DNA of 64,000 bases, taken from contig JAZJYH010000044.1 of the NCBI GenBank assembly GCA_040390485.1, positions 698 to 64,697 of the forward strand, given 5' to 3'. A program made the position numbers and the translations under genes. Each line of letters starts with the position of its first letter. The first letter of the stretch is position 1. Below, piece after piece: positions 38,421 to 50,022 of the stretch. The DNA is from Pseudomonadota bacterium (GTDB lineage: Bacteria > Pseudomonadota > Gammaproteobacteria > Burkholderiales > Burkholderiaceae_D). Below the pieces are notes generated by a model. That model saw only the letters and a program-made list of their open reading frames with translations. It did no database searches and had not been told where the DNA came from.

Positions 38421-38648
38421 ACGGCAAAGTTGACAAGGATGGTCGGCAGGATGGAAGGTATTCCGCAGTACGCAGTAGTAAGCGGTGCCTGCAATCAAGG
38501 TCTAAAGCCAATGCCGACATCAATCGGCCAGCGCCGTCGGCATGATCGCAGCAACAGGGTTTCCATACGATGTGTGCCCTAATCTACCAGCCCTGCAGCG
38601 CCAAATGCGCCTCAAATATCCATCCAAATCTATTAGATGTAAAACAAG

Positions 38649-38673
38649 TTTCAAGCTGTTTCCAGTTGAAACA
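38649..38673. promoter_or_regulatory. Conserved 25-bp palindromic motif, copy 1
   Basis: TTTCAAGCTGTTTCCAGTTGAAACA; 24/25 identical to 44356-44380; contains TGTTTC-N5-GAAACA. Confidence 0.55.
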
Positions 38674-38857
38674 AAGCTAAATTAAAAGTTATCCCCGATA
38701 TACACTTTTAGGTACGCTGTCGCACAGACGCGTGGCCATTTGGTGCGTATCTTGACAAGCGCGATTACTAGTGAATACCAAGCAAAAATTGTCACGCACT
38801 CTGCGCCTTGCCCGATAAGAAAATCTTTATAGATCAACCATAAGAAAGGGACTTGCC

Positions 38858-41035: not shown

Positions 41036-41064
41036 TTGCTTCTCGTAAAAAGAGCCGCTATCCT
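41036..41064 (+). promoter_or_regulatory. Putative sigma70 promoter of riboswitch-protease unit 1
   Basis: TTGCTT-17 nt-TATCCT; counterpart TTGCTT-17-TCTCCT at 44422-44450. Confidence 0.5.
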
Positions 41065-41107
41065 TCAATGCAGTCGCGGAACAGTTTCTTTAAAGCTGCA
41101 AAGTGGC

Positions 41108-41197
41108 GTCTGTAAAGGGCAAACCCATCGAAAGGTGGGGACGCAAAATCACCGGTCTAAAGGGCATGTATTGCTCCATGATAGCGGGTTGCCAGAC
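41108..41197 (+). ncRNA. c-di-GMP-I (GEMM) riboswitch aptamer, copy 1
   Basis: GGGCAAACCCATC-GAAA-GGTGGGGACGCAAAATCACCGGTCTAA..ATGATAGCGGGTTGCC; P1 GTCTG/CAGAC; G20, A47 and C92 equivalents present. Confidence 0.92.
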
Positions 41198-41320
41198 TAG
41201 CGGTCGAACAAGTCGCCTTATGGTTATGGGGCTTGTCGACGAAGTTTGAAAAGCGAAGCTTCACCATCGAAGCTTACTACGGCAAATATTGCCTGCTTTT
41301 CATGCTTGCGCGTTCTGTAA

Positions 41321-41373
41321 TGCAACTCCTGTTCGTGGTCACAATATCGACCCGAACAATACAAGGAGTTGCA
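41321..41373 (+). promoter_or_regulatory. Shine-Dalgarno-sequestering hairpin of protease 1
   Basis: TGCAACTCCT (41321-41330) pairs perfectly with AGGAGTTGCA (41364-41373), which contains the RBS. Confidence 0.7.
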
Positions 41374-41375
41374 CA

Positions 41376-43235
41376 GTGAACCACAAATCCAACAAGCCGA
41401 CAAATACCCAGGCTACTTCCGCTTCCCAGTCACAACTGGCAAGGCATCTGTCCACTTCTGGTTTTGCGGTAAAAACTTCCTTCCTTGTCGTTGCAGCAGC
41501 TGCTGCCAGCATTGGCTTCAGCCATCCTGCTCACGCAGTACAACCTGTTTCCAATCAGAATGCCGCTGAATCCTGGGCTCCCGGCCGTATCCTGGTCGTG
41601 CCACGCGCCGGCTTGCCGGAAAAAGAACTGGCCAAGATCCTCGCCGTGCACGGCGGCAAAGGCCGCAAGATCGGCCAGAGCAGCATGTATATCGTCGACC
41701 TGCCTGGTAACGGCTCCGAAAAAGACATCGCCGCCAAATTGTCGCAGCATCCGCACCTGAAGTTTGCCGAAATCGACCGCCGCGTCGCCGGCAGCTTCGT
41801 GCCGAATGACCCTTACAACGGCAGCGAATACCACCTGACCACGATCGGCGCACCCGCCGCCTGGGATTCTTCCCAAGGCGCAGGCATCACCATCGCCATC
41901 CTGGATTCCGGTGTCGACCCTACCCACCCTGATCTCGTTCCCAATCTGGTGGCCGGCTACAATTTCTACGACAACAACACCAATACCGCCGACGTCAACG
42001 GCCACGGTACCGCCGTTGCCGGCGCCGCCGCCGCCGCCAGCAATAACGGCATCGGTGTGGCCGGTGTCGCAGGCCAGGCCAAGATCATGCCGGTGCGTAT
42101 CGCCGATGCCAATGCCTACGCCTATTACAGCACCATCGCCCAGGGCTTGACCTGGGCCGCCGATCACGGCGCGCGTGTTGCCAACATCAGCTACGGCGGC
42201 GTGGCCGGCAGCCCCTCGATCCAGAGCGCGGCACAGTACATGAAGAGCAAGGGCGGCCTGGTCGTGGTCTCTGCCGGCAATAACGGCATCAATGAAACCA
42301 CTGCACCGACCACCACCATGATCCCGGTCTCGGCCACCGACAGCAATGATGCACTGGCCAGCTGGTCTAGCTATGGCAGCTTTGTGGCCGTATCCGCGCC
42401 TGGCGTTGCGATCTGGTCCACTTCGAATGGCAGCGCCTACGGACAACATTCGGGCACTTCCTTCTCCGCCCCGATTACTGCTGGCGCCGTTGCGCTTGCC
42501 ATGTCGGCCAATACCACTCTGGACGGCACCCAAGTGGAAAGCATGCTGTACTCCACAGCAAAGGACCTCGGCACCGCCGGCCGCGACATCTACTTCGGCT
42601 ACGGCCGGGTCAACGCAGCGGGCCTGGTGCAAGCCGCAGTCGCTGCCAAGCCGGTCGTTGATACGCAAGCGCCGACCGCCTCCATTTCGGCACCGCTGGC
42701 CAACGCCACCGTATCCGGACTGGTAGCCGTCAACGCCAATGCCGCCGACAATGTCGGCGTGGCACGGGTGGAATTGAAAATCAACGGCAACGTAGTCGCT
42801 GTTGACAACGCCGCCCCGTTCGCTTTCAGCTGGGATTCAAGCGGCGTTGCCAATGGTATGGCAAGCATCGTGGTAGTCGCCTATGATGCAGCCGGCAACG
42901 CTACCGCTTCTGCACCTGTCTCGGTTAACGTGAGCAATACCGTTGTCATCGTTCCCAAAGACACTACCCCGCCTGTAGTTGCCATCACCAACCCTGTTGC
43001 AGGTAGCGTCAGCGGCACTGTCACTGTCAGCGTCAATGCCTCCGACAACAGCGGCGCTGCCGGCATCACCCAATCCCTGTATATCGACGGCGCATTGAAG
43101 GCCACCGGTACCGGCTCGACACTCGGATACAGCTGGAACACCCGCAAGGTTTCTTCCGGTGCCCACACTATCCAGGTCGTTGCAAAGGATGCCGCCGGCA
43201 ATACCACTAGCTCTACCGTGCAGGTAAGCAGGTAA
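41376..43235 (+). CDS. Secreted S8 subtilisin-like (thermitase-type) protease with two C-terminal Ig-like domains, copy 1
   Basis: Triad ILDSG, NGHGT, GTSFSAP; prodomain; two DTxAP/DTTPP-initiated Ig-like repeats; GTG start after AGGAG. Confidence 0.93.
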   Translation: MNHKSNKPTNTQATSASQSQLARHLSTSGFAVKTSFLVVAAAAASIGFSHPAHAVQPVSNQNAAESWAPGRILVVPRAGLPEKELAKILAVHGGKGRKIGQSSMYIVDLPGNGSEKDIAAKLSQHPHLKFAEIDRRVAGSFVPNDPYNGSEYHLTTIGAPAAWDSSQGAGITIAILDSGVDPTHPDLVPNLVAGYNFYDNNTNTADVNGHGTAVAGAAAAASNNGIGVAGVAGQAKIMPVRIADANAYAYYSTIAQGLTWAADHGARVANISYGGVAGSPSIQSAAQYMKSKGGLVVVSAGNNGINETTAPTTTMIPVSATDSNDALASWSSYGSFVAVSAPGVAIWSTSNGSAYGQHSGTSFSAPITAGAVALAMSANTTLDGTQVESMLYSTAKDLGTAGRDIYFGYGRVNAAGLVQAAVAAKPVVDTQAPTASISAPLANATVSGLVAVNANAADNVGVARVELKINGNVVAVDNAAPFAFSWDSSGVANGMASIVVVAYDAAGNATASAPVSVNVSNTVVIVPKDTTPPVVAITNPVAGSVSGTVTVSVNASDNSGAAGITQSLYIDGALKATGTGSTLGYSWNTRKVSSGAHTIQVVAKDAAGNTTSSTVQVSR

Positions 43236-43459: not shown

Positions 43460-44158
43460 TTATTGCAGGCGGCGGCGCGCTGCCGCCAAGCCAAGCAATC
43501 CCAGCCCGAACAGCGCCAGGCTGGCTGGCTCTGGAACTTCGTTGCCGCCACCGCCGCCGCAGTCGACAGTGCAAACAACCGGCGGGGTGCATTGAGTACC
43601 AGTGCAGGAAAATTCAAAGGAACCGGGGCCAGTCTGGAATTTGACGCCAAGTGGGTCAAAAGTAATCAGGCTATTGGAGCCGCCGAATGCGCCGGTCAAG
43701 ATCAATACAAACGAATCCGATGCGCCGGCCAGGATACCGCCATTCCCGCCGCCATTGCAGTTGTTTCCGCCGAACGCGCACACTTCTATTGCAGCAAGGC
43801 TAGGGATATTATCCAGCGAGGCGTTGACCATACCGCCATCGGCTGCGTCCGAGAATGTGACAGCGGTTACGTTAGGATTTATTCCAAAACCGAAGGCAGT
43901 CAGCCGATCACCGGCGACTGTCGATAAGTTATTGAGTGTAACGGCAAGTGTTGCGCTGGTCGCGCTCAATGCCGTGATGTCCAAGGTCCCACTCAACGCA
44001 ACCGTGCCGGCAGTAGTCCCTGTCGCCAGGGAAAACGCGAATGCTACCGGCGGATTAGCCAGCCCGATGACGATCGCATTTGCCTGGCCGGCGCCGAATG
44101 CCGAAAATGCAAATGCTAAAACGGCGCCTGCCAACTTCTTTAAATATGAATTTTTCAT
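43460..44158 (-). CDS. PEP-CTERM surface protein, cistern-like, copy 1
   Basis: Signal peptide; CAFGGNNCNGGG Cys turn; C-terminal VPEPASLALFGLGLLGLAAARRR; RBS GGAGAGG. Confidence 0.9.
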   Translation of the reverse strand: MKNSYLKKLAGAVLAFAFSAFGAGQANAIVIGLANPPVAFAFSLATGTTAGTVALSGTLDITALSATSATLAVTLNNLSTVAGDRLTAFGFGINPNVTAVTFSDAADGGMVNASLDNIPSLAAIEVCAFGGNNCNGGGNGGILAGASDSFVLILTGAFGGSNSLITFDPLGVKFQTGPGSFEFSCTGTQCTPPVVCTVDCGGGGGNEVPEPASLALFGLGLLGLAAARRRLQ

Positions 44159-44187
44159 GTACCTCTCCATTGTTATGAATTTGTATA

Positions 44188-44204
44188 TGCACTTTCCATA
44201 CCAG
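44188..44204 (-). promoter_or_regulatory. sigma54-type -24/-12 promoter of PEP-CTERM 1
   Basis: Minus strand CTGGTATGGAAAGTGCA = GG-N10-GC. Confidence 0.6.
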
Positions 44205-44265
44205 AACAAAATTCCCCAGCAAAATCAATTACTTATACTTTTTTAAGTCCAACCAATATCAAAAA

Positions 44266-44282: not shown

Positions 44283-44355
44283 AGAAAAAATGCTGTAAAA
44301 AACATCATTCCATACAGCAAGAATTCTTCATGGAAATGGATAACTGTAAGAAAAA

Positions 44356-44380
44356 TTTCAAACTGTTTCCAGTTGAAACA
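44356..44380. promoter_or_regulatory. Conserved 25-bp palindromic motif, copy 2
   Basis: TTTCAAACTGTTTCCAGTTGAAACA. Confidence 0.55.
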
Positions 44381-44494
44381 GTGCTCAATAAAAATCTTGA
44401 CCCTGGGCTAAACTCCCGCCATTGCTTACGATAAATAGAGGCGTTCTCCTTTCAACGCAGTCGCGAAACAGTTTTGTTAAAGCTGCAAAGCGGC

Positions 44495-44583
44495 GCCTGT
44501 AAAGGGCAAACCCATCCAAAGGTGGGGACGCAAAATCACCGGTCTAAAGGGCTTTAAAGCCCCATGACAGCGGGTTGCCAGGC
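44495..44583 (+). ncRNA. c-di-GMP-I (GEMM) riboswitch aptamer, copy 2 (CAAA loop variant)
   Basis: Same core as copy 1; P1 GCCTG/CAGGC (compensatory change); P2 loop CAAA at 44517-44520; P3 tip GGGCT-TTAA-AGCCC. Confidence 0.88.
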
Positions 44584-44708
44584 TAGCAGTCGAGCGGGTC
44601 GTCTTATTGAGACCTGCCGGCGAAGATTGGGTAGCGCGGTTTTAAGACGCTACGGTGGATGTTATTGTCCGCCTTTCATTCTTGCGCTTTTTGCGCGTTA
44701 TTCTGTAC

Positions 44709-44761
44709 TGCAACTCCTGTTCGTGGGTGTTTCACCAGCCCAAACAACGCAAGGAGTTGCA
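44709..44761 (+). promoter_or_regulatory. Shine-Dalgarno-sequestering hairpin of protease 2
   Basis: TGCAACTCCT (44709-44718) / AGGAGTTGCA (44752-44761). Confidence 0.7.
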
Positions 44762-44763
44762 CA

Positions 44764-46629
44764 ATGAATTACCCATCCAGGAAATCGACAAATACCCAAT
44801 CTACCGAGTCTACGGTCCATACTCAATCGCCGGTAAGACGCTTGTCAGCTTCTGGTCTTGCGCTTAAAACCTCCGTCCTTGCCGTTGCTGCCGTTGCTGC
44901 CGCTGCTTTCAGCGTCGGCCCTGCCTACGCCGTACAACCTGTGTCCAATCAGCATGAGGCTGAATCCTGGGCTCCCGGCCGCATCCTGGTCGTGCCGCGC
45001 GCCGGCTTGCCGGAAAAAGAACTGGCCAAGATCCTTGGCGTGCACGGCGGCAAGGGCCGCAAGATCGGCCAGAGCGACATGTACATCGTCGACCTGCCGA
45101 GCAACGGCTCAGAAAAAGACATCGCCGCCAAACTGTCGCGCCACCCGCACCTGAAGTTTGCCGAGATCGACCGCCGCGTCGCCGGCAGCTTCGTACCTAA
45201 CGATCCCTACAACGGCAGCGAATACCACCTGACCAAGATCGGCGCGCCTACCGCCTGGGATTCTTCCCAAGGCGCAGGCATCACCATCGCCATCCTGGAT
45301 TCCGGTGTCGACCCTACCCACCCTGATCTCGTTCCCAATCTGGTGGCCGGCTACAATTTCTACGACAACAACACCAATACCGCCGACGTCAACGGCCACG
45401 GTACCGCCGTTGCCGGCGCCGCCGCCGCCGCCAGCAATAACGGCATCGGTGTGGCCGGTGTCGCAGGCCAGGCCAAGATCATGCCGGTGCGTATCGCCGA
45501 TGCCAATGCCTACGCCTATTACAGCACCATCGCCCAGGGCTTGACCTGGGCCGCCGATCACGGTGCGCGGGTTGCCAATATCAGCTACGGCGGCGTGGCC
45601 ACCAGCCCCTCGATACAGAGCGCGGCGCAGTATATGAAAGGTAAAGGCGGCCTGGTCGTGGTCTCTGCCGGTAATAACGGCATCAATGAGAACATCACGC
45701 CGACGACCACCATGATTCCGGTCACCGCCACCGACAGCAATGACGCGCTGGCCAGCTGGTCCAGCTACGGCAGCTTTGTGGCGATGTCCGCGCCTGGCGT
45801 TGCGATCTGGTCTACTTCGATGGGCAGCACCTACGGCCAGCACTCCGGCACTTCCTTCTCCGCCCCGATTACTGCCGGCGCCATTGCGCTTGCGATGTCG
45901 GCCAACACCACGCTTGCCGGTACGCAAGTGGAAAGCATGCTGTACTCCACGGCAACCAACCTCGGCGCCGCCGGCCGCGATATCTATTTCGGCTACGGCC
46001 GGGTGAATGCAGCGGGCCTCGTGCAGGCAGCCGTGGCAGCCAAGCCGGTAACGGATACCCAGGCGCCGACCGCCTCCATTTCCGCGCCGCTGGCTAACGC
46101 CACCGTATCCGGACTTATCGCCGTCAATGTCAATGCTAGCGACAACGTCGGCGTGGCGCGGGTGGAACTGAAAATCAACGGCAACGTAGTCGCCGTGGAT
46201 AGCGCCGCTCCTTTCGCCTTCAGCTGGGATTCGCATGGTGTTGCCAATGGTATGGCGAGCATCGTGGTAGTCGCCTATGATGCAGCCGGCAACGCCACCG
46301 CATCAGCGCCTGTCTCGGTGAATGTCTCCAACAGCACTGTCGTGGCTGCCAAAGATACGACCCCGCCTGTGGTTGCCATCACCAATCCTGTGGCAGGTAG
46401 CGTCAGCGGCAATGTCACTGTCAGCGTCAACGCCTCCGACAACAGCGGCGCTGCCGGCATCACCCAATCCCTGTATATCGACGGCGCATTGAAGGCCACC
46501 GGTACCGGCTCAACCCTTGGATACAGCTGGAACACCCGCAAGGTTTCTGCCGGTGCACACACTATCCAGGTCGTTGCGAAGGATGCTGCCGGCAATACCA
46601 GCAGCTCTACCGTGCAGGTAAGCAAGTAA
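44764..46629 (+). CDS. Secreted S8 protease with two C-terminal Ig-like domains, copy 2
   Basis: Same triad and architecture as copy 1; coding offset 3394 bp; ATG after AGGAG. Confidence 0.93.
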   Translation: MNYPSRKSTNTQSTESTVHTQSPVRRLSASGLALKTSVLAVAAVAAAAFSVGPAYAVQPVSNQHEAESWAPGRILVVPRAGLPEKELAKILGVHGGKGRKIGQSDMYIVDLPSNGSEKDIAAKLSRHPHLKFAEIDRRVAGSFVPNDPYNGSEYHLTKIGAPTAWDSSQGAGITIAILDSGVDPTHPDLVPNLVAGYNFYDNNTNTADVNGHGTAVAGAAAAASNNGIGVAGVAGQAKIMPVRIADANAYAYYSTIAQGLTWAADHGARVANISYGGVATSPSIQSAAQYMKGKGGLVVVSAGNNGINENITPTTTMIPVTATDSNDALASWSSYGSFVAMSAPGVAIWSTSMGSTYGQHSGTSFSAPITAGAIALAMSANTTLAGTQVESMLYSTATNLGAAGRDIYFGYGRVNAAGLVQAAVAAKPVTDTQAPTASISAPLANATVSGLIAVNVNASDNVGVARVELKINGNVVAVDSAAPFAFSWDSHGVANGMASIVVVAYDAAGNATASAPVSVNVSNSTVVAAKDTTPPVVAITNPVAGSVSGNVTVSVNASDNSGAAGITQSLYIDGALKATGTGSTLGYSWNTRKVSAGAHTIQVVAKDAAGNTSSSTVQVSK

Positions 46630-46847: not shown

Positions 46848-47567
46848 TTATTGCAGGCTGCGACGCATTGCAGCCAGACCCAGCAATCCCAGACTGAACA
46901 GCAACAAGCTTGCTGGCTCTGGAATTTCATTACCGCCGCCACCGCCGCAATCCGGTCCTGTGCAGGGAACAGGAGTGCATTGGGCGCCAACGCACTGAAA
47001 CTCAAAGGAACCAAACTCGGTCTGGTACTTCACTCCCAAAGGATCGAAAGTAATTGTACTGCCGAATGCGCCAGTCAAAGTCAGCACAAACGAATCCGAG
47101 TTGCCCGGGCCAGGAGAAGGGAAGAGACCGTTACCCGTCCCACCAGCACAATTATTGCCGCCCCATGTGCACACCTCAATATCTTTGAGGCTAGGAAGAC
47201 CAGGACTACCAGGAATACCAACTATTCCCGCATCGATGATCCCTGCATCGGCTGCATCCGAAAATGCCACGGCGGTGACATTAGGATCTACCCCAAAGCC
47301 CCAAGCCGTGAGCCTATCGCCGGCAACTGTTGATAAGTTATTCAAGGTAATAGCCACGGTAGCGCTGGTCGCGGTCAATCCTGTGATGTCTATGGTGCCG
47401 CTCCAGGACAGTAAGCCTGCTCCATTCCCCGAAGGCATGGAAAACGCAAACGCAACAGGAGGATCCGCGAGGCCTATGGTGATCGCATTGGCAGAACTAA
47501 AACCGAAGATGGAAAACGCAAGCGCTAGGATAGTGCTCGCAAGCTTCTTTATAGATAATTTATTCAT
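46848..47567 (-). CDS. PEP-CTERM surface protein, cistern-like, copy 2
   Basis: Signal peptide; CTWGGNNCAGG; C-terminal IPEPASLLLFSLGLLGLAAMRRS; RBS CAGGAG. Confidence 0.9.
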   Translation of the reverse strand: MNKLSIKKLASTILALAFSIFGFSSANAITIGLADPPVAFAFSMPSGNGAGLLSWSGTIDITGLTATSATVAITLNNLSTVAGDRLTAWGFGVDPNVTAVAFSDAADAGIIDAGIVGIPGSPGLPSLKDIEVCTWGGNNCAGGTGNGLFPSPGPGNSDSFVLTLTGAFGSTITFDPLGVKYQTEFGSFEFQCVGAQCTPVPCTGPDCGGGGGNEIPEPASLLLFSLGLLGLAAMRRSLQ

Positions 47568-48877: not shown

Positions 48878-49422
48878 GTCATGAACTCAATGTTCCTGAA
48901 CCGAGCGGAATGTTCAGCGTTGCAAACAGCTTTGCAAATGTATGCCCTTCGTAGCGCCAAGCGTGTGCCGCGCCTTGAGCTTACTTCACTGCAAGATTGC
49001 GGCTAACGCAAGAGCCGGCTCCATCACCCACCAAACAAGGCATATGAAATGTGCAAGCCAGCATTTTTTTGCAAAAACTTTACGCCTTGCAACACAAAAA
49101 AATAATTATCTCGATCAATCACAGCGGCAAAGCGAGCCGTCAACTGTCGATATTAAGGCCAAAAAAGTGAATTTATCCGATTTTTTTTGTGAATTCAATT
49201 GTTGCGATTGAAATTACACAAATTTTGAAAAACTTTGTCAATCATTGTCACAAGCCAACGCACAAATTTGTAATAGTTTGTAATCGTGCCTACACTGAGT
49301 TCGCAGGGAAGTGGAAAACGTGATGGTGAGCAACTTACTTTCACGAGGCGCAAGCAGCGAAACGGAACTCTGCAAAAGCAAGGCCTGGTGTAATTCACTT
49401 TTATAAAATTAGGGAGTTAATC

Positions 49423-49599
49423 ATGAATGCTATAAAGAAGTTCTTCAGGGAAGAGGACGGCGCAGCGGCAGTTGAATACGGCCTGCTGGTTGCCTTGATC
49501 GCTGCCATTATTGTTGCTACTGTGAAAATTCTGGGCACCGTGATCCTGGGCGCGTTCAAAACCGTATGTAACGCCATCACTACCGGCGCTTGTCCTTAA
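49423..49599 (+). CDS. flp: Flp pilin 1 (58 aa; absent from the ORF track)
   Basis: MNAIKKFFREEDG/AAAVEYGLLVALIAAIIV..CNAITTGACP; RBS AGGGAG. Confidence 0.93.
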   Translation: MNAIKKFFREEDGAAAVEYGLLVALIAAIIVATVKILGTVILGAFKTVCNAITTGACP

Positions 49600-49610
49600 G
49601 GAGCATGATC

Positions 49611-49787
49611 ATGAACTCCATTTTGCAATTCTTGAAAGAAGAAGACGGTGCAGCGGCAGTTGAATACGGCCTGCTGGTTGCCTTGATCGCCGCCATCATC
49701 GTTGCTACTGTGAAAATTCTGGGCACCGTGATCCTGGGCGCGTTCAAAACCGTATGCAACGCCATCACTACCGGGGCTTGTCCTTAA
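49611..49787 (+). CDS. flp: Flp pilin 2 (mature sequence identical to pilin 1)
   Basis: MNSILQFLKEEDG/AAAVEYGLL..; RBS AAGGAG overlaps the previous stop. Confidence 0.93.
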   Translation: MNSILQFLKEEDGAAAVEYGLLVALIAAIIVATVKILGTVILGAFKTVCNAITTGACP

Positions 49788-49798
49788 GGAGCATGACC

Positions 49799-49975
49799 GT
49801 GAACTCCATCTTGCAATTCTTAAAAGAAGAGGAAGGCGCGGCGGCAGTTGAGTATGGCCTATTGGTTGCATTGATCGCCGCCATCATTGTTGCTACGGTA
49901 AAGATCCTGGGGACCGTCATCCTGGATGCATTTAAAACCGTGTGCAATGCCATCACTACCGGCGCTTGCCCTTAA
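49799..49975 (+). CDS. flp: Flp pilin 3 (GTG start; one G-to-D change in the mature part)
   Basis: VNSILQFLKEEEG/AAAVEYGLL..ILDAFKTVCNAITTGACP; 188-bp period. Confidence 0.93.
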   Translation: MNSILQFLKEEEGAAAVEYGLLVALIAAIIVATVKILGTVILDAFKTVCNAITTGACP

Positions 49976-50022
49976 GGCAACATGCTAATAGGCCAAGCAA
50001 TTGCTGTATGCAATAGAAAGAC

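Follow-up and report, generated by a model that had tools for sequence, protein, structure and literature searches.

The stretch of DNA analysed here, 64,000 nucleotides in length and referred to below as the window, carries two c-di-GMP-I (GEMM-I) aptamers that, on the evidence of their sequences, probably both belong to functional class-I riboswitches exerting translational control over a duplicated pair of secreted S8 proteases; the CAAA loop of the second copy would then be a tolerated variant and not a sign of decay. Both elements had been recognized as c-di-GMP-I aptamers in the initial annotation, and full-length matches to the Rfam family RF01051 bear this out. Copy 1 (41108-41197, forward strand) matched at 41108-41196 with 74.7 bits (E 7.8e-13) and copy 2 (44495-44583, forward strand) at 44495-44582 with 73.0 bits (E 2.1e-12), in each case over model positions 1-87 and above the gathering threshold of 35 bits. 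They were the only two RF01051 matches in the 5.8 Mb genome, which is a draft of 146 contigs with 90.65% completeness.

The P1 helix is formed by GUCUG (41108-41112) and CAGAC (41193-41197) in copy 1 and by GCCUG (44495-44499) and CAGGC (44579-44583) in copy 2, which confirms the compensatory change from U-A to C-G noted earlier. The P2 stem CCCAUC/GGUGGG is identical in both copies and is closed by GAAA in copy 1 (41130-41133, forward strand) and by the non-GNRA loop CAAA in copy 2 (44517-44520, forward strand); these loops, also as first noted, were verified by reading the sequence and in the model alignment. The P3 tips had been described as hairpins that differ in sequence. They are hairpins in both copies and their terminal loops differ, but the difference between the stems is slight (GGGC/GCUC in copy 1, GGGC/GCCC in copy 2) and that wording needed correction. 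Over 90 aligned columns the two aptamers are separated by eight substitutions and one indel. Half of the substitutions (4/8) fall at paired positions, and no pair is broken: P1 holds the sole double-sided compensation, and the other two stem changes convert G.U to G-C. When eight substitutions were placed at random in 200,000 trials, all pairs were spared in just 0.7% (P = 0.007); the structure is therefore conserved beyond chance, in keeping with the earlier proposal that the fold is under selection. The P1/P2/P3 junction comprises 26 pairs, none of which is broken in copy 1, copy 2, or L032, the closest relative found.

The nucleotides equivalent to the ligand contacts G20, A47, and C92 of the Vc2 riboswitch (numbering of the literature) are present in both copies according to the model alignment. 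The inter-helix pair C44-G83 is also kept in both, with C44 in the GAC internal loop of the segment GACGC and G83 carried by the AG bulge. The P3 receptor UCUAAA/CAUGA, an internal loop resembling the 11-nt motif (CUAAN/N'AUG), is shared without change by both copies and L032. The GNRA tetraloop on P2 that characterizes type 1 is found in copy 1 (GAAA) and is replaced in copy 2 (CAAA). Judged by these features, both elements are of the ordinary type-1 c-di-GMP-I kind, with a loop variant in one copy that is rare, recurs elsewhere, and is apparently tolerated.

The two aptamers belong to a tandem duplication with a period of ~3.39 kb, in which each unit consists of an aptamer, an S8 subtilase gene located ~180 nt downstream of it, and a convergent PEP-CTERM gene. 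Subtilase paralogue 1 (41376-43235, forward strand, 619 aa) contains the domain PF00082 (2.1e-49) and two Big_7 Ig-like domains (PF17957), and paralogue 2 (44764-46629, forward strand, 621 aa) likewise contains Big_7 domains by Pfam. The cistern-family PEP-CTERM proteins are encoded on the reverse strand at 43460-44209 (PF07589; NF033947 with 111.6 bits, cut-off 60) and at 46848-47567 (Pfam and NF033947 search), and their link to the proteases is only positional. The two proteases share 89.5% amino-acid identity with a dN/dS of 0.20, and dN/dS was 0.10-0.13 when they were compared with the L032 orthologue; neither protease gene is disrupted, and purifying selection acts on both. Coding dS was 0.34 between the window copies and ~1.05 to L032, so that the window copies are mutual closest relatives, whereas in the leader copy 1 is nearer to L032 than to copy 2. 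Exact-protein look-ups with the two proteases, and with the longer ORF of copy 2, returned no identical entry and pointed to no independent assembly of the organism in the collections searched, and in the protein search L032 was the sole relative with more than 80% identity.

Several further observations concern this cassette. The protease genes have in common a perfectly identical tract of 313 nt (41857-42169 and 45251-45563) despite their overall dS of 0.34, a pattern suggestive of gene conversion within the tandem pair; divergence is far greater in the leaders and over the first ~60 codons. A second GEMM-I aptamer lies directly 3' of a riboswitch-led protease gene in Pseudoduganella violacea (L046, ~3710 and ~5882), and Noviherbaspirillum pedocola has two riboswitch-protease loci (L041 and L050), arrangements which indicate that duplication of the cassette is recurrent. 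Protease orthologues of Geobacter (45-46% identity) are preceded by a c-di-GMP-I-UAU aptamer (RF03168; L052, 3790-3872, and L054, 3733-3815), and the cassette is thus tied to differing ligand-pocket variants of the clan across phyla. S8 protease homologues with 38-57% identity were also found on metagenome-assembled contigs of Nitrososphaeria and Bathyarchaeota (L053, L055, L057-L059, and L061), upstream of which no GEMM aptamer was detected; these archaeal homologues of a bacterial protease may reflect inter-domain transfer. Elsewhere in the window, three tandem repeats of 188 nt occupy 49420-49983 (90% and 78% identity to the first copy) downstream of a GGDEF/EAL operon, and the region looks like an adhesion/biofilm island.

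In unit 1 the aptamer is followed by a structured spacer (41198-41320, forward strand) that folds as one hairpin and a three-way-junction domain; copy 2 and L032 form the same helices from different sequences. Beyond it lies a hairpin that sequesters the Shine-Dalgarno (SD) sequence (41321-41375, forward strand; local fold -28.3 kcal/mol), with its anti-SD arm starting at 41321, the SD AAGGAG at 41363-41368, and a GTG start codon at 41376. The corresponding hairpin of unit 2 (44709-44763, forward strand), with the SD AAGGAG at 44751-44756 and an ATG start codon at 44764, is weaker (-22.5 kcal/mol); that of L032 has a local fold of -24.5 kcal/mol. The aptamer 3' strand AUGAYAGCGGGUUGCC is complementary to the anti-SD arm UGCAACUCCUGUUCG. 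The proposed competitor (anti-anti-SD) is AUGAUAGCGGGUUGCC in unit 1 (41178-41193, forward strand), with a best duplex of -14.5 kcal/mol on UGCAACUCCUGUUCGUG, and AUGACAGCGGGUUGCC in unit 2 (44564-44579, forward strand), with a duplex of -16.4 kcal/mol with the anti-SD arm.

This complementarity was followed through orthologous leaders. In each of the 11 examined, which stem from four sequence lineages, the aptamer 3' strand formed its best duplex with the 5' arm of the SD hairpin. Listed in the order aptamer strand, anti-SD arm, SD arm, the partner sequences are GGGUUGC, GCAACUC, and GGAGUUGC in the window, GGCAGGACUGC, GCAGUUCUGUC, and GGACAGGAACU in Noviherbaspirillum and relatives, and GGAAUUGC, GCGAUUCC, and GGAGGAAUUG in L022. 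Duplex energies averaged -19.0 kcal/mol within a lineage and -13.9 kcal/mol across lineages; shuffle tests of the competitor duplex were marginal for the window sequences (fraction ~0.04-0.05). The covarying three-partner complementarity is most likely the signature of a translational OFF switch in both copies. According to the model, the SD would be buried in the long hairpin by the anti-SD arm GCAACUCCUGU, to which the aptamer 3' strand GAYAGCGGGUUGC is complementary. In the ligand-free RNA, the aptamer strand could pair with the anti-SD arm and thereby release the SD; binding of c-di-GMP would lock the strand in the aptamer, leaving the SD sequestered and translation off. In the unconstrained ensemble the SD was unpaired with a probability of ~0.67 in copy 2 and ~0 in copy 1. 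Of the three leaders folded with RNAfold, only copy 2 was predicted to open its SD hairpin, those of copy 1 and L032 staying closed in either state, so that the switch was not reproduced thermodynamically in silico in two of the three.

Putative promoters were read in the sequence upstream of both aptamers: TTGCTT-N17-TATCCT for unit 1 (41036-41064, forward strand), with the same hexamers and spacing in L032, and TTGCTT-N17-TCTCCT for unit 2 (44422-44450, forward strand), which is without the A at -10 position 2. The -10 hexamers (41059-41064 and 44445-44450, each 17 nt past TTGCTT) are as the initial annotation gave them. Their standing as promoter elements is less secure, with TTGCTT-N17-TATCCT agreeing with the sigma-70 consensus at 7 of 12 positions and a consensus promoter scan reporting neither putative promoter; since the hexamers lie below the threshold of the scan, no conclusion on promoter strength was drawn. 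Between the unit 1 promoter and P1 lies a segment (UUCAAUGCAGUCGCGGAACAG...; 41065-41107, forward strand) that is possibly transcribed and is near-invariant in copy 1, copy 2 (44451-44494), and L032. In unconstrained folds of copy 1 and L032 it pairs with the P1 5' strand GCGUCUGUA, through UGCAG-U-CGC with GCG-U-CUGUA, and a near-copy of that strand, GCGUUCUGUA, is located just before the SD hairpin (41310-41319, with its counterpart at 44700-44709 in copy 2). As modelled, the segment and the P1 mimic could form an extra strand-exchange layer, or they could be promoter/operator DNA. A 50-nt repeat with the dyad TGTTTCCAGTTGAAACA occurs twice in the window at 84% identity, upstream of a DUF4382 gene (38638-38687) and ~30-80 nt upstream of the putative -35 hexamer of unit 2 (44345-44394; TTGCTT at 44422). 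The repeat was absent upstream of unit 1; as a possible regulator site, it may provide copy 2 with a distinct transcriptional input.

The loop of copy 2 was compared with those of relatives. An L032-type leader was found in one of 84 genomes of the genus, G077 (a metagenome-assembled genome contig that corresponds to both L032 and L097), where the cassette is single. The L032 aptamer (71.3 bits) differs from copy 1 at 2 of 90 positions, the rest of the leader being ~26% diverged, and one of these two positions is the first of the P2 loop, where L032 has U (UAAA). Every outgroup aptamer examined, whether before orthologous proteases or elsewhere in the genus, has GAAA; the changes from G to C and from G to U therefore arose independently, whatever the order of events. 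A total of 401 genomes spread over the order were scanned with the pattern GGCAAA-N16-GACGCAAA, and among the 150 matches listed P2 was of the hairpin type in 124, with GAAA in 100, another GNRA loop in 21, and CAAA in 3. The CAAA cases outside the window genome (L090 and L091) come from different families and have different stems; they score ~70 bits and have canonical 11-nt receptors and intact genes downstream. Metagenome contigs were scanned for non-G loops only on the exact P2 stem, so that the 18 recovered (13 AAAA, 4 UAAA, and 1 CAAA) are a count without a denominator and give no frequency. All 18 match the c-di-GMP-I clan with 62-91 bits (13 to RF01051 and five to the c-di-GMP-I-GGC variant RF03167), and they span several distinct lineages. 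The three loop adenines are kept in all NAAA cases. By this survey, non-GNRA NAAA loops are rare, at no more than a few percent, yet they recur in aptamers that are otherwise exemplary.

A separate GEMM-I lineage from fermentation and other metagenomes (74-83 bits) was also encountered, with AAAA in L092, L096, L098, L101, L102, and L105 and UAAA in L095 and L104. Its members have the P2 stem of the window aptamers, a canonical UCUAAG/UAUGA receptor, and diverged P3 tips, and four of the contigs carry a pemK RNA match ~1.2 kb from the aptamer.

In structures of the GAAA/11-nt receptor complex the three loop adenines are the bases that contact the receptor, and base 44517 corresponds to the tetraloop position that we take, from the same structures, to make no receptor contact. 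The C at this position would probably weaken the pre-organization of the loop and slow docking without abolishing it. By nearest-neighbour energies, the replacement of GAAA with CAAA costs +1.3 kcal/mol in the P2 hairpin. This cost would be offset by the stronger P1 and P3 of copy 2: P1 has -6.8 kcal/mol in copy 2 against -4.7 kcal/mol in copy 1, a gain of -2.1 kcal/mol, and the predicted two-dimensional fold of the whole aptamer is ~5 kcal/mol more stable (-25.4 against -20.2 kcal/mol).

The initial annotation had deduced a lower affinity of copy 2 from the tetraloop/receptor contact, which the literature does establish as a tertiary contact of the c-di-GMP-I class. In Vc2, inter-helix tertiary contacts pre-organize the binding pocket, with A33 of the tetraloop stacking on A62 of the receptor (PMC11705072). 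Removal of this stacking in the A62G receptor mutant gave a KD of 194 nM, compared with 146 nM for the wild type, and slowed folding, so that full occupancy took days, or annealing; the authors named the contact a kinetic facilitator, and the C44-G83 pair is essential (PMC11705072). The near-unchanged KD weakens the step from a non-GNRA loop to lower affinity. The stabilizing changes of copy 2 also outweigh the cost of the loop, CAAA keeps the three adenines, and non-G loops recur in intact aptamers elsewhere. For these reasons a lower affinity of copy 2 does not follow from its sequence and is only weakly supported; CAAA appears to be a tolerated variant with a roughly neutral or slightly tuning effect, rather than a sign of decay.

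A differing c-di-GMP dose-response between the paralogues is nevertheless plausible from the leader sequences. Compared with copy 1, copy 2 combines the CAAA loop with stronger P1 and P3, a stronger competitor duplex, a weaker SD hairpin, and a putative -10 hexamer without A, and because these changes act in differing directions their net effect on the threshold is unreadable from sequence. One reading is that the loop itself sets the threshold, CAAA lowering the affinity for c-di-GMP so that the two proteases switch at different concentrations. We regard this as possible though doubtful. The pre-organization of the pocket by tertiary contacts would give such an effect a basis (PMC11705072). 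The rarity of non-GNRA loops (~2% in the order sample, among the matches listed) implies some cost, and loop position 1 has changed twice independently in a small clade while the surrounding 55 nt are invariant. The SD hairpin and competitor energies given above would moreover make copy 2 leakier. Against this reading, the Vc2 A62G mutation alters folding kinetics and not the equilibrium KD (PMC11705072), a translational switch can equilibrate, so that a kinetic defect would be muted, and the stronger P1 and P3 of copy 2 act in the opposite direction. If the paralogues differ, the models make it more likely that the weaker SD hairpin, the stronger competitor pairing, and possibly the promoter are responsible than the loop. 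A rather speculative variant, which we mention with little confidence, is that NAAA loops are a selected, 'detuned' form of the GAAA/11-nt-receptor module and that the pair has diverged at three levels to give a two-threshold response. Such a module would bring slower docking or a raised c-di-GMP threshold, and the three levels would be the promoter, the tertiary contact, and the SD hairpin, acting on two nearly identical secreted proteases.

It is unlikely that the switches act mainly on transcription, through intrinsic or Rho-dependent termination in the ~125-nt spacer, with the SD hairpin as a constant, ligand-independent element. Terminator-like hairpins are found at equivalent places in the two units (41281-41293, followed by TGCTTTTCAT, and 44654-44673, followed by TTTCATTCTT), and the SD hairpins predicted to stay closed in copy 1 and L032 would fit such a scheme. 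The stems are short (5 to 8 pairs), however, their T-runs are interrupted, and the hairpin at that place in L032 is without a T-tract. Termination would also leave unexplained the covariation of the three complementary partners between lineages. An intrinsic terminator was set aside as the main platform, on account of the weak hairpins and the T-tract absent in L032, and kept only as a rival to the translational OFF switch, although these weak spacer hairpins leave room for a transcriptional component. Complementarity between CAUCCA, which spans the P2 strand and loop of copy 2, and UGGAUG (44656-44661) was judged compatible with chance.

The initial annotation had offered decay of copy 2 as an alternative, under which its aptamer would be decaying or ligand-blind and protease 2 constitutive or unexpressed. 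This is very unlikely. The non-GNRA loop, the missing A at position 2 of the -10 hexamer TCTCCT, and the lower leader identity to L032 (73.1% for copy 2, 79.4% for copy 1) could be taken as its marks. Yet copy 2 scores nearly as high as copy 1 against RF01051, every stem change preserves pairing, and no change affects G20, A47, C92, C44-G83, or the receptor. Its expression platform retains both the SD hairpin and the competitor pairing, and the downstream ORF is intact with a dN/dS of 0.13-0.20. CAAA is also found in other intact aptamers, and the comparison with orthologous copies in relatives, which had been proposed as a check, yielded in L032 a sole close orthologue whose UAAA loop was counted against decay. 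A sequencing or assembly error at 44517, with both loops truly GAAA, is highly improbable despite the draft state and incompleteness of the genome, since consensus errors are rare and would have had to strike this exact base, the sister genome has an independent non-G base at the same loop site, CAAA is found in unrelated genomes, and the copy 1 and copy 2 leaders differ at ~24% of positions, which means that the copies were clearly resolved in the assembly.

The riboswitch class is well studied and the elements are ordinary, so the biological surprise is small. What the window and its sister genome provide is a natural set of matched aptamers that differ essentially at position 1 of the tetraloop (G, C, and U) and are identical in the P2 stem and the receptor, and with it a ready test of the share of the first tetraloop base in docking, folding rate, and ligand response. 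The covariation of aptamer strand, anti-SD arm, and SD provides a testable translational mechanism for a widespread riboswitch-protease cassette of Burkholderiales-type soil bacteria, in which the proteases adjoin PEP-CTERM (matrix or floc) proteins.

Several c-di-GMP riboswitches per genome, mostly transcriptional and differing in response level, are known from Clostridioides difficile, in which the secreted protease PPEP-1/ZmpI goes down with c-di-GMP and surface and adhesion proteins go up. That system involves another phylum and another protease family, and the window paralogues come from a recent tandem duplication. The GEMM-Ib (3'3'-cGAMP), c-di-GMP-I-GGC, and c-di-GMP-I-UAU variants share the clan CL00126 with the window aptamers. 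Recognition of cGAMP or an altered specificity (A20, GGC, or UAU variants) was considered and rejected: both copies have G where Vc2 has G20, and it is the parent model that gives them their highest score; altered ligand specificity is therefore not indicated. Type 2 GEMM-I aptamers, with a GYRA loop and without the receptor, also depart from the GAAA/receptor pair, which indicates that the family tolerates peripheral variation; their loops are still of the GNRA type with G first, whereas copy 2 has a non-G first base and an unchanged receptor. The closest parallel is Vc2, the type 1 GEMM aptamer of Vibrio cholerae, which represses translation when bound to its ligand (PMC11705072). The window aptamers share with it the Rfam family, the three-helix architecture, the G20, A47, and C92 contacts, the C44-G83 pair, the docking of the tetraloop into a receptor in the neighbouring helix, and, as proposed here for both copies, ligand-dependent repression of translation. 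They differ from it in the CAAA that replaces GAAA in copy 2, in a receptor (UCUAAA/CAUGA) that is nearer to the 11-nt motif than that of Vc2, with A/C where the motif has G.U, and in the SD hairpin, which is separated from the aptamer by a structured spacer and lies ~125 nt downstream.
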